Part shown: positions 3,329-59,880 of the stretch, in pieces
Layout of the letters: each line of letters begins with the position of its first letter
How positions within the stretch are numbered: the first letter of the stretch is position 1
The notes under the pieces: model-generated
What the model was told of the DNA's origin: nothing
What the model saw: only the letters and a program-made list of their open reading frames with translations
The model's database searches: none
Source: a virus
IMG/VR virus record: IMGVR_UViG_3300025889_000083
Location: 32,001-96,000 of that record
Length of the DNA: 64,000 bases
Strand: one strand, 5' to 3'
Position numbers and translations under genes: made by a program

Positions 3329-3942
3329 TTCTAGTAGGAAACTCTGTCGAGTTATTAGAGTATGAATATGGAGACTATATAGAATCCTTTGATATAATAG
3401 TAAGATTCGGCAGAGGTATTCCTCGCCCAGATATTTATAAATCAGTTGGAAAACGAACTGATATCTGGATTACTGGATTTTTGAGAGCAAACTTTCATCC
3501 ACACTTTCCTACCGCACTGAAACTTCTTAATCGGTGCAGAATACACTTAAATAAAAAACCTACTCGAGAAATAGTTTTCGATCACGAAGTAATGTACTCA
3601 GATGATGAGTTAATGCTTATATTTGAAGAATTTGGTTGTAAAAACGGAGATGCAAATGCGTTGCGACCAAGTGCTGGTTATATGGGTGTTCATTATTTTG
3701 TGAATAAAATGAACATGTGGAAAAACTTAAATCTAATAGGTTTCGACTTTTTTCAAAAGAAACTTCCATGGAAACTAGGACAGGACTATCCTTCAAGTTG
3801 GCATTTACCAGAGAATACAATACAGAGAAGTCCACATGCAAAAGATAAAGAACGAGAAATCGTTAGTCAGTGGAACGAGAAAGGAATACTAAATTGGAAA
3901 ATACTTTCTGATTTGAAAGAAGAATTAATAGACTTTTCCTAG
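3295..3942 (+). CDS. GT29/sialyltransferase-like protein
   Basis: ILVGNS...IESFDIIVRF...VGKRTD sialylmotif-L-like; PSAG...LIGFDFF; C-terminal H..xE. Confidence 0.7.
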   Translation: MVSDKIRNKSVILVGNSVELLEYEYGDYIESFDIIVRFGRGIPRPDIYKSVGKRTDIWITGFLRANFHPHFPTALKLLNRCRIHLNKKPTREIVFDHEVMYSDDELMLIFEEFGCKNGDANALRPSAGYMGVHYFVNKMNMWKNLNLIGFDFFQKKLPWKLGQDYPSSWHLPENTIQRSPHAKDKEREIVSQWNEKGILNWKILSDLKEELIDFS

Positions 3943-4884
3943 AATATAACCTGCTTGAAGTATTTTTCGTGTAGCTTGCTTTTGCTTTTCAGCTTTTAAC
4001 AAGATTCTTTCATTTACTCTAGCGTTTCTAAGATTTACAGGGATTCTGTCTATTAAATTTGCATATAGATCAAAAGGAACTGCTAATGCTACTCCCATAG
4101 GACAGTCAGCATATTCAGCAACTAAATATTTATGATCGCAACTAATAGAAAATGCTTTTCTCATTGCAATATTATGATTAAGAGTATCTGCTGTACCGAT
4201 AGAATCAACTTTGATAAGATAATCTACCTTCATACTTGCATACAAAGGCATATGTCCAAATTTATAAGTTTTTAATGCGTTAAAAAATACATTATTTCTT
4301 GCACCATTAATATAGGCATCAAGTCTGTGTTCTAATCCAATAACTGCAGGAGCTCTGCCGTCTTCAAAGAATAATTCATGATCTCCTATCTTATCTAGTT
4401 CATCCCAATTAAATAGCATAAAATTAGTATCTAAATCATTTTTCTCATGTGAAACTCCAAGTATATTGTAATAATTTCTATACATTGGATGCTCTATATA
4501 CTGCCATCTTTTAGGAGCCATAACAACACCTTTTTGCCAGTCTGCTGGTGGTAATTGTCCTACCCAGTCTCTAAGAAATATTCTATTGTCTCCGAACATT
4601 AAAACTCTTTTATTGAGTTTACCATTCTTACTTCCTTCGCCTCTATACCATCTTCTTATAAGAAGTAAAAATTTTGCTTGCCAGTTACCATTAGCTACCT
4701 TTGAAGGTATTTGATAGCATTTATAATTTTTGAAATTTCTGTCAATCCATTCAACAACTTCTTTGTCCCATTGATCTTCATGAAACCCAACATGTAGGCG
4801 AAAGCTATCCCCATCCCAATCTAACATGGATGCGAGTGTGAACATTCCGTACACTGGTTTGTATCTATAAATTACTTCTATCAT
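3925..4884 (-). CDS. Hypothetical protein, possible divergent GT-A glycosyltransferase
   Basis: 319-aa ORF in GT cluster; GDNRIF and DTNFMLFNWD resemble GT8 segments only weakly. Confidence 0.5.
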   Translation of the reverse strand: MIEVIYRYKPVYGMFTLASMLDWDGDSFRLHVGFHEDQWDKEVVEWIDRNFKNYKCYQIPSKVANGNWQAKFLLLIRRWYRGEGSKNGKLNKRVLMFGDNRIFLRDWVGQLPPADWQKGVVMAPKRWQYIEHPMYRNYYNILGVSHEKNDLDTNFMLFNWDELDKIGDHELFFEDGRAPAVIGLEHRLDAYINGARNNVFFNALKTYKFGHMPLYASMKVDYLIKVDSIGTADTLNHNIAMRKAFSISCDHKYLVAEYADCPMGVALAVPFDLYANLIDRIPVNLRNARVNERILLKAEKQKQATRKILQAGYILGKVY

Positions 4885-53960: not shown

Positions 53961-54018
53961 TTGACTCACCCTAAAATTCATAAATGAATTTTAGGGTGTG
54001 TTTCGCTTTTTGTCAATA
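53961..54018. repeat. 58-bp repeat copy 1 containing 32-bp palindrome and minus-strand promoter
   Basis: One mismatch to 56282..56339; CACCCTAAAATTCAT-AA-ATGAATTTTAGGGTG. Confidence 0.9.
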
Positions 54019-55512: not shown

Positions 55513-55874
55513 TTACAGGGCAAAGCTATCTTTCATTAATTCCTTCTCATATCTTAGCTTTGCCCTATTCCGATTTGGGCTCTGTTGATCTCATTTAATT
55601 TTTATTAAATAAGGACGGAAACTCTCTTTGTTAATTTCTACGAGAGCAGAGCCCAAAGTTATCCACAAAAAAACGACTTACTAACAAGGTTATCCACAGG
55701 CAAATTTTTTTGTCACAAAACTTGACTTTTTTCGAAACGCGGTCTAAAATTTGCTTATTGCAAAGCAATAACCGAAGGTCGCAAATTTTAGACCGAGCCC
55801 AAATTAACCAAAAAAATAATTTAAAAATATTTAAAAAAACGCTTGACGGCAGGGTTAAAATTTGAGAATATATA

Positions 55875-56281: not shown

Positions 56282-56339
56282 TTGACTCACCCTAAAATTC
56301 ATAAATGAATTTTAGGGTGTGTTTCGGTTTTTGTCAATA
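56282..56339. repeat. 58-bp repeat copy 2
   Basis: Near-identical to 53961..54018. Confidence 0.9.
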
Positions 56340-56423: not shown

Positions 56424-56500
56424 GCGCCAAAGTGCAAAAGTGAAGTGCCAAAGTGATGGCGCTTGCGCCAAAGTGCGAAAGTGAAGTGCGAAAGTGAAGT
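56424..56500 (+). repeat. AA(A)GTG(C) repeat tract
   Basis: About nine AAGTG/AAGTC units; related tract at 57136..57190. Confidence 0.8.
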
Positions 56501-56681
56501 CTTTCTGTGAGCTGGCGCGCGTGCCTGGCGGGGTCGCATAGTCTTTTTTTTTTATTGGCACTTATCCACAGGTTATCCACAGACTTATCCACAGGCAAAA
56601 ATATGCGGGTGCTTCCCGCCCACTACCACCCTGATATGATAGCACACAATTTTCTTTTTGTCAATAGCTTTTTTTAAAAAT

Positions 56682-56706
56682 AAAAAAGCCGACATAAGTC
56701 GGCTTT
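56682..56706 (-). terminator. Terminator after 56721..56864
   Basis: GCCGAC-TTAT-GTCGGC-TTTTTT. Confidence 0.8.
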
Positions 56707-56720
56707 AATTCACGCCAAAT

Positions 56721-56864
56721 TTACTTGGCGTTTAGAATGGCGACGATTGTCGCTTTGTTGGCTCGCTCTAAGCTAGAGAGAGCTAATCTTGGTAAACGGA
56801 ACTTTTGTTCCACTTGGCGAACCAAAGCATCTTTGGTTATTTCAACTTTTGTTTCTTTTGTCAT
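56721..56864 (-). CDS. 47-aa mini-protein, paralogue of 54360..54506 (not in ORF track)
   Basis: AAGGAG RBS; MTKETKVEITKDALVRQVEQKFRLPRLALSSLERANKATIVAILNAK. Confidence 0.75.
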   Translation of the reverse strand: MTKETKVEITKDALVRQVEQKFRLPRLALSSLERANKATIVAILNAK

Positions 56865-57395
56865 AATTATCTCCTTACTGAATACATACTATTATACTGA
56901 AACTTTTGTCCCATTCAAGAGATATTTTAAATTTTTTTAACTTTTTTCAGCCCGCCACCAGCTTGACTTTGCGAGGCGACAATTTTGCCCGAATTCAGCG
57001 AAGAATGGGGAAATATAGCGAGAACCGCATAGCGGCGGGGTTTTTCGCGGGGTTGGGCTGGCAGGTGAAAAGCAAGCACAGCCTGCGTTAGCGTGATAGT
57101 AAGCACTTACTATTCGCACACGCTCTGCACCGAAGAAAGTGCAAATTCGAAGTGCAAAAGTGATGCGCGCGCGAGCGCGCTAGTGCAAAAACGATTTAAG
57201 TAGTCTTTCTAGCAAACCTCATTATATCACGGCTTTTGCGGGGTTGTCAAGAAATTTTTTGCGTTTTTTGGAGATTTGCGAAGCACCCGCTCAGGTTTCG
57301 TACGCCCGCCCCCGAAATAAAAGTGCGTTCCACCTCCAATTAAAAAAGTTAAAGTAATTGTTGACTTGGCGGATCACTTTTTATATAATATTCTC

Positions 57396-57744: not shown

Positions 57745-57773
57745 TTGACAAGCCACCAAAAAACCTCTATAAT
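57745..57773 (+). promoter_or_regulatory. Consensus early promoter
   Basis: TTGACA-N17-TATAAT-ATACTTA. Confidence 0.9.
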
Positions 57774-57827
57774 ATACTTATTATGAAATGGTTAATAAAT
57801 AAAATTTTTGGGAGAAATAAAACAATC

Positions 57828-58145
57828 ATGGCAACAACTAATTACACAGACGAAATGGTATCATCAATGGTTTCAGCTTACGAGGCTAACCCATCAAGAG
57901 ATACAGTAGATTCTCTAGCTTCACAATTTGGCAAGACTACTAGAAGTATCATTGCTAAACTCAGCAGAGAAGGCGTATACCAAGCTCAACCAAGACTAAC
58001 AAAGTCAGGCGAGCCAGTGGTTAGCAAAACAGAGTTAGTTTCTCAGATCACCACTTTAACAGGTATCGAGTTCACTAACCTAGCTAAAGCAGGTAAGTCA
58101 GACTTACAAGCTCTAGTAGACTTCTTTACTGCCGAACAGCAGTAA
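57828..58145 (+). CDS. T5 A2/D3-like DNA-binding protein
   Basis: NYT.E, SIIAKLSREGVYQ, TKSGE.V.K.ELV; GGAG RBS; paralogue of 62670..63044. Confidence 0.7.
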   Translation: MATTNYTDEMVSSMVSAYEANPSRDTVDSLASQFGKTTRSIIAKLSREGVYQAQPRLTKSGEPVVSKTELVSQITTLTGIEFTNLAKAGKSDLQALVDFFTAEQQ

Positions 58146-58218
58146 GCATAAGACCTCCTTATGAATAGTGTGGTGGGCACTTTAACCCACCAAGTCAGAA
58201 AATACTTCAAAGTTTTTC

Positions 58219-58247
58219 TTGACAAAAGGTTAAATTTCATTTATAAT
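58219..58247 (+). promoter_or_regulatory. Consensus early promoter
   Basis: TTGACA-N17-TATAAT-ATACTTATATTTGAG. Confidence 0.9.
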
Positions 58248-58379
58248 ATACTTATATTTGAGATTGAGAAAGATCAAAATTTCTCAAACGCAGGGTTGCT
58301 CAGTTCAAGGAAGAGCATTAAAGGATAATTCCTCAACAACGCCCAAAGCTACCTCCAAGAAAATACATCAAAATTTTTC

Positions 58380-58408
58380 TTGACAAGAGGTTAGACTTCG
58401 GATATAAT
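58380..58408 (+). promoter_or_regulatory. Consensus early promoter driving the large RNA candidate
   Basis: TTGACA-N17-TATAAT-ATACTTATATTTGAG. Confidence 0.9.
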
Positions 58409-58414
58409 ATACTT

Positions 58415-59578
58415 ATATTTGAGAAGAAACAAGTTCTCGAATGACTTTTCGGAAAATGAGTTAATCTCTCTGTGAGTCGGACTTGTTTGCCTACCACTCA
58501 GGCGAAAGAAGTGGCGTAGTGTGAAATTCCGACAAAAGTTCACCCCAATGGCTAACGGGTTAATACGCTCCTCATGATCGGGCAATAGAGGTTAATATTG
58601 CGACCCGTGATGTTCAGTAATCGTTATAGGACTGTTCCCCCTGCTCATTAGGTGGTTATCAGAATGAGTACTTCGTGTGCGAGTATTGAAGGACACACCG
58701 AGTATATACGCTCGTCGATAGTATATCAGAACACCTGCTCTGAGATGCAGGTCAGATGCTCGGCATTTTATGCAGCGTTTTTCCAGAGAACTGTAGACTG
58801 TAGGAAAAACAGCACTCTTAAAAGAGTTTGCCCTAGTGGGTAATAGGAAAAAATAAATGTATCAGCTTCGGCGGTAAAATAATCCTTCCACAAATGCAGG
58901 CTCTTTTAAGAGTAAAACTCTTAGGCACTAACAGTTTCGGCTGTGAATACCTAGCCCACATTGCCTTAACGCAAGTAGTAGGACGAAGTAAGTGCCGCCC
59001 ACATGTTGGCGTTATCTAAGTGCAAGTTTGACATTGTAAGCACTTGACCTAAGTATGCAAATACAGGAACGAGCCAATGTCCTTGTGGTAAAAAACACGC
59101 TACTGGCAATGCCAACCGATACCTGAGAAGATCTATGGGTTGGCTCTCACAAGGTGGAAACGCTGATGATGAGTAGCTATCTTCTCTTAGTAGCAACATG
59201 CAACGAAAGTGCCTATACGAGCAATGGGTGGACGAAGTAGTTCAGAGGACGAGGCGAGATTCAGCTTTAGCTGTCAACCCCATCAAGTAATGTGAGTCCA
59301 GCGAAAAAACACCCTAATGACGGCACAGTTTATGGAACATGGGTGCTTGCAACCCCACGACCAAAAGTCGACTATAATATGAGTGAAATACTGTAGCAAA
59401 TGCGAAACACGACTCTGACAGTGATAAAACAACGGGCATATTTTTTTAGACATTCAGTTTTACATAGCCTAAATAAAAACTAATCAAAATCAAAAAACGC
59501 GGTTTGAACCCTATGATGGAAAAGAAGTGTGAGTTGACGGACAACATCACTCCCCTGCCTCATAGGGTTTTTTGTTTT
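58415..59578 (+). ncRNA. Candidate large (~1.15 kb) structured non-coding RNA
   Basis: Promoter- and terminator-bounded, no credible ORF, many stems with G-U pairs and UUCG/GNRA loops. Confidence 0.65.
59507..59578 (+). terminator. Terminal stem plus U tract
   Basis: AACCCTATGA...TCATAGGGTT-TTTTGTTTT. Confidence 0.7.
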
Positions 59579-59626
59579 CCCTAAGATATTCACATCAAAA
59601 TTTTCACCCCACATCTAAAAAATTTC

Positions 59627-59655
59627 TTGACAAAATTCCTTAACTCCTGTATAAT
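59627..59655 (+). promoter_or_regulatory. Consensus early promoter
   Basis: TTGACA-N17-TATAAT. Confidence 0.9.
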
Positions 59656-59679
59656 ATTACTTATATTAAGGAGAAAAAT

Positions 59680-59880
59680 ATGAACTTAAATATTATGCGA
59701 AAAGATACCATAGAGCTATTAGCACATCAGTATGATGTCGGTGCTTATGGGCGTGCCTGCAGAAAAGAACTTCGTAGGCGAAAAAATATAGGTTTCTGGC
59801 TAGGTCCGATTGTATCACCTGTCAAAATGAAAGAAGAACGCGAGTCCACAGTAGGAACTGTTAGGGTGGTGCGTAAGTGA
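59680..59880 (+). CDS. Hypothetical early protein
   Basis: AAGGAG RBS after promoter. Confidence 0.7.
   Translation: MNLNIMRKDTIELLAHQYDVGAYGRACRKELRRRKNIGFWLGPIVSPVKMKEERESTVGTVRVVRK

Follow-up and report, generated by a model that had tools for sequence, protein, structure and literature searches.

What does a phage encode in 1.16 kb of DNA that lie between a consensus promoter and a terminator and hold no credible open reading frame (ORF)? The question is raised by positions 58415-59578, plus strand, of a stretch of viral DNA of 64,000 nucleotides (nt), called the window here, which comprises bases 32001-96000 of IMG/VR record IMGVR_UViG_3300025889_000083, a 104,148-bp genome rated complete. 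An earlier note on this DNA, made from the sequence alone, had suggested that the unit specifies a large phage non-coding RNA (ncRNA) of the GOLLD or ROOL kind, possibly of a new class. We have little doubt that the unit is a conserved structured ncRNA gene: it has promoter and terminator signals, lacks conserved coding, is conserved in sequence and in position among related phages, and displays covariation on the plus strand. Our overall reading, to which we give a probability of about 0.8, is that of a stand-alone gene of about 1.16 kb for a structured ncRNA of a new family, made early and acting as a partner-binding scaffold. The scaffold role, taken by itself, is considerably more tentative.

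The limits of the unit are marked by transcription signals (Table 1). The promoter of the RNA gene, P2, is preceded by a tandem promoter, P1, and no terminator was found in the spacer between them (58255-58379), so that transcripts from P1 should run into the RNA gene and carry about 160 nt of extra leader. At the other end, a stem followed by a T-run closes 38 of the 40 full-length units of the family described below, 55-59 nt ahead of the next -35 box and with stem sequences that are unrelated to each other. The position between a consensus promoter (58380-58408, 12 of 12 consensus positions) and a terminal stem plus U tract (59507-59578), to which the earlier note had drawn attention, is confirmed, as is the raised G+C content of the unit (0.42-0.46, compared with 0.33-0.38 in the flanks). 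A promoter and terminator of its own, both kept in relatives, are what is expected of an independent structured ncRNA gene.

Relatives were collected with the small upstream gene (57783-58145) as bait, which gave 28 IMG/VR loci. The same layout of gene, P1, P2, an ORF-poor terminated unit of 860-1,290 nt and P3 is found in 24 of these, and the P1-P2 pair, 109-190 nt apart, is kept in 21 of the 24 syntenic loci. BLAST comparisons between the units gave several clusters with only short islands in common. A 20-nt motif, M1 (GAUUCAGYUUUARCUGUCAA), is present as an exact pattern in 60 IMG/VR contigs; from these, 42 distinct units bounded by promoters were obtained, of which 40 are full-length (940-1,621 nt). 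The pattern of M1 with an adjacent second motif, M2, retrieved nine further metagenome contigs. Identity to the window RNA is 78-82% in five of the nine and in the IMG/VR locus L019; three others, which are more distant, have the core in common with it. The family, which is carried by uncultured marine T5-like siphophages, comprises units of 0.9-1.6 kb; they occur on no fewer than 60 contigs of IMG/VR and 9 of metagenomes. A global MAFFT alignment of the 42 units was unusable (3,098 columns, with the promoter, M1 and the end alone aligned) and the family was therefore analyzed module by module.

No conserved reading frame was found. ORFs within the unit, on both strands, range from 30 to 77 amino acids, and all 11 ORFs of at least 30 amino acids on either strand carry frameshifts and/or stops in the relatives of 78-82% identity. 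Insertions and deletions among the relatives measure 1, 4, 6, 8, 19, 26, 62-70 and about 100 nt and do not keep to multiples of three. Some units contain longer stop-free stretches on the minus strand, the length of which varies between close relatives. The region thus has no credible ORF, as had been claimed, and conserved small ORFs do not explain it.

The most conserved part is a core found in all subgroups. From the outside in, it consists of an outer helix (Pc), an unpaired UCAG, helix Pb, helix Pa enclosing a hairpin, and the return strand AAGUAAUGNGA (M2). In the window, M1 is the hairpin inside Pa. Covariance model R1 finds the whole core in other architectures as well; there another hairpin caps Pa, and M1 lies 100-560 nt upstream. 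The subgroup of the window has replaced Pc by a loop-E-like AGUA (59236-59239) opposite GAA (59303-59305), followed by the helix GGGUG (59226-59230) / CACCC (59310-59314), which becomes GGGCG/CGCCC in L091, with single-change intermediates in L089 and L090. For the 16 sequences that carry M1 inside Pa, aligned as a seed without a model, 81.5% of alignment cells were paired, compared with 24-33% when the partners were slid, and 11 of 23 pairs showed compensatory changes. With 32 sequences the values were 82%, compared with 25-34% in the slid controls, and 17 of 23 pairs; model-fitted alignments lean towards the structure under test, but the model-free seed alignment gives the same picture. The covariation score for the 32 sequences (0.345 vs 0.119) was reached by none of 500 shuffles. 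Within M1 itself the UUUA loop and the GAUU/UCAA internal loop are invariant; the 4-bp stem occurs as CAGC/GCUG, CAGU/ACUG and a bulged CA(U)GG/CCUG, and the flanking helix covaries too.

A third module, M3, has like M1 and M2 persisted in the face of rapid sequence divergence. It consists of a 4-bp closing helix and an A-rich internal loop (AAAAAAUAAAUG / AAAAUAA in the window, with AAAUAA as consensus) that ends in AAUG. A 6-bp helix follows, which contains a bulged A and has a UUCG cap. In M3, 98.5% of cells were paired (30-47% when slid), 7 of 10 pairs were compensatory, and the observed score was again reached by 0 of 500 shuffles. At several pairs of the core and of M3, G-U alternates with G-C and A-U; one Pb pair, for instance, is GU in 17 sequences, GC in 10 and AU in 2. 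The structure is therefore that of the plus strand, since the opposite strand would give A-C mismatches, in agreement with the earlier claim that G-U pairs favour the plus-strand RNA. These are strand-specific compensatory changes above controls, and together with the lack of a conserved reading frame they are what an ncRNA gene should show.

The strand-specific changes also bear on a possible role in replication, in which the transcript, as a pre-primer of the ColE1 RNA II or T4 ori type, would form an R-loop and prime phage DNA synthesis. Structured pre-primer RNAs exist, the promoters here are strong, and clustered DnaA boxes with iteron-like repeats lie 2-3 kb away. However, the G-U pairs in the covariation point to action at the level of RNA and not of DNA, the intrinsic terminator of 38 of the 40 members contrasts with the unterminated transcription into the origin that characterizes ColE1 RNA II, and we saw no conserved G-rich stretch that could form a hybrid. 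We regard this explanation as very improbable.

Beyond the core and M3, the unit has a modular architecture. RNAalifold, applied to the window and five close relatives, predicted 305 pairs, 29 of them compensatory compared with 2-5 when partners were slid by 1-3 columns; the full-length fold outside the tested modules is based on these six closely related sequences. The virome homologues that the earlier note had suggested examining for covariation thus show it strongly in the core (17/23 pairs), in M3 (7/10) and along the full length (29 pairs). Relative to the -35 box, the window and the L019 group have M3 at +447 to +465; the corresponding values are +325 to +447 for the other units with a long 5' part (L031, L059, L078 and L084) and about +61 to +84 for most of the remainder. 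Counted from the RNA start, it lies about 25-45 nt away in most members and about 430 nt away in the window RNA. The window RNA therefore bears about 390 nt more at its 5' end, a domain partly common to a few subgroups. The L019 group lacks the hairpin at 58733-58752 and has an additional hairpin of about 70 nt after 58922. Such gain and loss of hairpins is behaviour expected of modular peripheral RNA helices.

Several helices drawn in the earlier note can be judged from the same alignments. The long helix 58814-58831 / 58896-58913 is real, with eight compensatory pairs in relatives, and the helix GTTTTTCC/GGAAAAAC (58777-58784 / 58803-58810) has one. The hairpin formed by AAGTGC (59018) and GCACTT (59040) has been fully re-written yet kept in the L019 group (AAGUGC/GCACUU to UGCAUA/UAUGCA), and of the two UUCG loops (58867 and 58936), both present, the second is UACG in relatives and so still UNCG. 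GTCGGA/TCCGAC and ACGGGT/ACCCGT are present and invariant in the relatives. CATTGCC/GGCAATG and GCCAACC/GGTTGGC are likewise in place, but the 3' arm of the former and the whole of the latter belong to a module that is missing from L089 and L091, and the ACCTGC/GCAGGT hairpin is absent in relatives. The nested helices are located as described, but their density is within chance, as the folding energies given below indicate.

Table 1. Features of the RNA gene and its immediate surroundings; positions are those of the window
Feature	Position	Strand	Remarks
Linked early gene	57828..58145	+	105-120 amino acids, helix-turn-helix (HTH)-like ('A2/D5-like') protein; PHROG 323 'transcriptional regulator, D5-like', E 6e-5
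Promoter P1 (tandem, upstream)	58219..58247	+	12/12; 161 nt upstream of P2
Promoter P2 (of RNA gene)	58380..58408	+	TTGACA-17-TATAAT, 12/12; start inferred near 58415
5' extension domain	58415..58813	+	'long 5'' subgroups only; partial homology to L078, L031, L059, L084
Long helix around M3	58814-58831 / 58896-58913	+	8 pairs changed on both sides in L019 group, pairing kept
M3 module	58839..58891	+	covariance model R2: 68.6 bits in window; found in 31 loci
Middle domain	58914..59217	+	several hairpins, from alifold on 6 relatives; UNCG hairpin 58930-58945, re-written hairpin 59018-59045
Optional two-hairpin module	59089..59195	+	107 nt; cleanly missing from L089, L091 (alignment A2, columns 759-866)
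Universal core	59218..59328	+	covariance model R1: 102 bits in window
Core, unpaired UCAG	59242-59245	+	
Core, helix Pb	59247-59250 / 59296-59299	+	
Core, helix Pa	59251-59257 / 59278-59284	+	
M1 hairpin	59258..59277	+	GAUU-CAGC-UUUA-GCUG-UCAA; inside core in window, 100-560 nt from M2 in other subgroups
M2 junction strand	59285..59295	+	AAGUAAUGUGA, nearly invariant, unpaired; between Pa and Pb
3' domain	59329..59506	+	varies between subgroups
Intrinsic terminator	59507..59578	+	stem 59553-59567, then T-run; enclosed by outer 10-bp stem 59507-59516 / 59560-59569
Promoter P3 (next)	59627..59655	+	12/12; heads early protein genes, bounds RNA unit

A number of results weigh against the overall reading. 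The folding energies of the three thirds of the unit are not unusual in comparison with dinucleotide shuffles (z = 0.03, -1.77 and +0.62), and the evidence for structure is therefore the covariation and not the energy. Among the six close relatives, none of the long-range pairs in the full-length model varies. Pfam searches with ten neighbouring early ORFs identified MazG and a zinc ribbon and no RNA-related domain. The protein of the linked upstream gene resembles DNA-binding HTH proteins, with no significant structural match, and BLAST searches of 50,697 phage records, with the DNA of the RNA region and with the linked protein as queries, gave no match. The unexceptional folding energy, together with the ORF-poor character of the surrounding 5 kb, could be taken to mean that there is no functional RNA at all, and that decayed genes, small ORFs or spacer DNA lie between the promoters. 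This is scarcely credible in view of the 20-nt and 11-nt motifs that are invariant across otherwise unalignable units, the dozens of compensatory changes, the lack of any conserved ORF and the fixed position and boundaries of the unit.

The RNA is not a member of a known family. A cmscan search of the whole window with all 4,227 Rfam 15 families gave nothing at gathering thresholds, and a 5-kb slice gave no match inside the unit at E<=10; the unit alone, searched with the laxest filters, returned only two 15-bit noise rows at E<=10. Ten other members of the family, searched at E<=1, gave no family match except to one neighbouring tRNA; one unit had a single noise row at its start (E 0.79, under the gathering score). 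No Rfam match of the unit was thus found to RNase P, tmRNA, 6S, signal recognition particle RNA, rRNA, group I/II introns or riboswitches, and ARAGORN identified no tRNA or tmRNA in the window and 0 tRNAs across the whole 104-kb genome, which agrees with the earlier statement that hallmarks of tmRNA, RNase P, rRNA and introns are absent. A full-text literature search found no description of the RNA family. We rate it as a new one, uncatalogued, within the loosely defined kind of large ornate phage RNAs; the suggestion of a large phage RNA comparable to GOLLD and ROOL and possibly of a new class is supported by the lack of Rfam matches in the unit and the ten other members, by the covariation and by the lack of a conserved ORF.

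GOLLD (RF01998), an ncRNA of more than 800 nt from phages and prophages, has an elaborate covarying structure and a conserved region accompanied by a much less conserved 5' region (PMC12286853). The RNA described here is likewise phage-borne, very large and covarying, has a conserved and a variable 5' part, and resembles GOLLD also in that neither has a known function. However, it remains below the gathering threshold of the GOLLD model (conserved 3' domain; no match at E<=10 for the window and at E<=1 for the ten members), its conserved motifs differ, it is longer (0.9-1.6 kb), and it has consensus early promoters upstream, in contrast to GOLLD, which reportedly rises at lysis. ROOL (RF03087), too, is a large structured phage and prophage RNA with no known protein partner or function; our RNA is about twice its size and also falls short of its model's gathering threshold. 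The adjacency to tRNA islands seen with GOLLD and ROOL is absent in the window genome, with its 0 tRNAs, and linkage to tRNAs is weak across the family (8 of 60 related loci). OLE and raiA-motif RNAs resemble the present RNA in their size, strong covariation and invariant unpaired letters, which suggest a ribonucleoprotein or a docking site. They are cellular (Bacillota, Actinomycetota) and not phage-borne, and their models do not match it; moreover, the protein partners of OLE are encoded beside the OLE gene, while the sole gene linked to our RNA resembles a DNA-binding HTH protein.

The likeness to GOLLD in phage origin, very large size, conserved core and variable 5' region could indicate a homo-oligomer made of RNA only, a closed cage or ring similar to ROOL and GOLLD in which the invariant loops form inter-subunit bridges through loop-loop or A-minor contacts. 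The RNA has many A-rich loops and loop-E-like AGUA/GAA motifs, the loops of M1 are kept while M1 moves around the scaffold, and neither the domains of neighbouring proteins nor the structure search with the linked protein made a protein partner evident. Palindrome-switching loops are the signature by which the bridges of ROOL, GOLLD and OLE have been recognized. Our search for them, which was not exhaustive, gave none. This result, the lack of a match to either the ROOL or the GOLLD model and the absence of tRNAs from the genome make such an assembly unlikely.

The absolute conservation of the unpaired UCAG, AAGUAAUGNGA, GAUU/UCAA and UUUA, held in place by covarying helices, also recalls catalytic cores, and a new large ribozyme might use the invariant junction strand and internal loops as an active site, for example in self-processing or in acting on host RNA. 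There is, however, no Rfam ribozyme match and no sign of cleavage products or exon-like flanks, and binding sites for ligands or proteins show an identical pattern of conservation; catalysis is quite improbable. Considered together as an autonomous RNA machine at the start of infection, that is, either a large ribozyme of a new type or a self-assembling multimer, shaped as a cage or ring, with a new architecture, these possibilities are doubtful. The active or docking site of such a machine would be the invariant UCAG / AAGUAAUGNGA junction with the M1 loops. Functional giant RNAs would thereby gain a new class, borne by a lineage of T5-like phages.

Our tentative preference is for an RNA scaffold to which a single conserved partner binds during host take-over, because the invariance resides in unpaired junction and loop letters that are held by freely covarying helices, and because M1 can be relocated. 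Fixed loops on a stem that changes in sequence and position, as in M1, appear typical of binding or docking modules. Transcription by the host polymerase is presumably early and strong, given the consensus promoters and the location in a T5-like early region. In this scheme host RNA polymerase would read the gene from one or both consensus early promoters and stop at the intrinsic terminator. The RNA would fold as a modular multi-domain structure, the peripheral helices of which are swapped, inserted and deleted between lineages. The variable periphery would surround the strictly conserved Pc-Pb-Pa core, with its unpaired UCAG and AAGUAAUGUGA, accompanied by M1 and M3. The invariant unpaired letters may form the binding site for a single conserved partner, either protein or RNA and of host or phage origin, which the scaffold would sequester or recruit while the host is taken over.

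A counter-defence decoy would also be made at this stage. It would be the first RNA made, would mimic a host RNA or a defence ligand, and would soak up a nuclease, a toxin or a sensor. The gene stands among the early or pre-early genes of a T5-like phage beside a region of DnaA boxes and palindromes, has consensus tandem promoters and is restricted to its lineage, since two more distant phage relatives (L026 and L028) have ordinary small ORFs at the same position. On the other hand, Tandem Repeats Finder detected 0 arrays in 58200-59700, so that repeats like those of ToxI or CRISPR-repeat mimics are lacking, no host RNA family in Rfam is resembled, and a decoy has no obvious need for 1 kb of covarying structure. 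We consider a decoy rather unlikely.

Large, intricately folded ncRNAs outside the ribosome are rare, and those of phages such as GOLLD and ROOL still await a function. The present family, with members of up to 1.6 kb, would rank among the largest such RNA classes. Its compact and sharply defined core is easy to mutate and offers a new target for RNA structure determination. The setting is informative as well, since the consensus early promoters belong to T5-like phages, classic systems for stepwise DNA entry and host take-over. The family thus provides a concrete handle on the role of large phage RNAs in infection.

The genome that carries the gene is identified as that of a distant T5-like siphophage, on the basis of its terminase, about 49% identical to those of T5-like phages (e.g. 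Serratia Slocum, Pectobacterium My1 and Yersinia phiR2-01), and of the long structural genes on the minus strand, including the terminase, a major tail protein and a neck protein (PHROGs). From about 52.7 kb of the window on, there is an ORF-poor stretch with palindromes, DnaA boxes and iteron-like repeats; beyond it lie small plus-strand early genes, with each battery headed by a consensus promoter. The earlier description of the setting as otherwise gene-dense does not hold, since 52.7-57.7 kb is ORF-poor as well and contains the repeats and DnaA boxes. Batteries of consensus sigma-70 promoters, a nearby ORF-poor region with repeats and DnaA boxes, and small A2/D5-like early genes are features in common with the pre-early/early region of T5 (Demerecviridae). 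A comparable RNA is not known to have been described for T5 or for cultured phages related to it.

The motif M1 was also sought in 185,579 bacterial and archaeal genomes, where 5 matches were found compared with about 4 expected by chance, none of them with M2, M3 or the promoters. The sole match with a flanking helix, L096, is G+C-rich and reads as ordinary coding DNA; the matches give no clue to the host.

Four plus-strand sigma-70 promoters matching the consensus at 12 of 12 positions occur at 57745-57773, 58219-58247, 58380-58408 and 59627-59655. Their common flanks consist of an A/T-rich stretch and TTC ahead of the -35 box and ATACTTATATT past the -10 box, and the four look like members of one family of phage early promoters in which the initial transcribed region is conserved. 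The P1-P2 spacer of several relatives contains a small conserved hairpin (CCCGUUGGG) that is absent from the spacer of the window.

In the ORF-poor stretch, co-oriented copies of TTATCCACA, the DnaA-box consensus, are clustered at 55655-55710 and 56560-56600, 2-3 kb upstream of the RNA gene, and runs of an AAGTGC/AAAGTG iteron-like repeat are located at 56425-56500 and 57135-57165. This stretch could be an origin or a region similar to the injection stop. Two identical perfect palindromes of 32 nt (CACCCTAAAATTCATAAATGAATTTTAGGGTG) are found at 53967-53998 and 56288-56319, each followed by a minus-strand promoter-like site, TTGACA-17-TAAAAT. On the minus strand at 56544-56722 there is a sub-threshold cmscan match to the Enterococcus small RNA RefA1 (34.9 bits, compared with a gathering score of 94; E 5.8e-5), which spans the run of DnaA boxes as well as a strong terminator hairpin and probably reflects mere terminator-like similarity.

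The window sequence of M3 (58846-58877) resembles AGGA-N8-AUG followed by a mini-ORF of six codons. A ribosome-binding site with a mini-ORF was rejected, because 'AGG' is one strand of a helix and covaries as such, and because the mini-ORF, with 2 to many codons, is not conserved in length. AAUG is invariant in M3, and UAAUG reappears in the invariant M2 strand (59285-59295).

The HTH-like gene is found upstream of the RNA in all 44 loci that were identified through the RNA motif alone and that include enough upstream DNA. An AlphaFold2 model of its product is confident (pLDDT 86) and shows an all-helical, HTH-like fold. Foldseek comparison of this model with the PDB gave no match at E<=0.001; its best rows, which are weak, belong to DNA-binding HTH regulators. 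The comparison speaks neither for nor against a part as RNA-binding partner.

Among the eight related loci with tRNAs, six have them about 3.5-4 kb away, including the closest relatives of the window, and two about 280 nt upstream. In L019 (10389-10708), L089, L078, L084 and L059 the tRNAs form clusters about 3.5-4 kb downstream, with specificities such as Ala, Asp, Gly and Thr; the upstream cases are single tRNA-Glu genes in L035 (4711-4785) and L062. Two further members deserve mention for their architecture. The 1,484-nt member L031 carries two copies of the core (3569-3679 and 3895-4015, with 96.6 and 44.2 bits), which suggests an internal duplication. In L088, a metagenome contig of 1,178 bp, the core lies just 213 nt past the upstream HTH-like gene, so that the 5' part of some of these RNAs is apparently very short.

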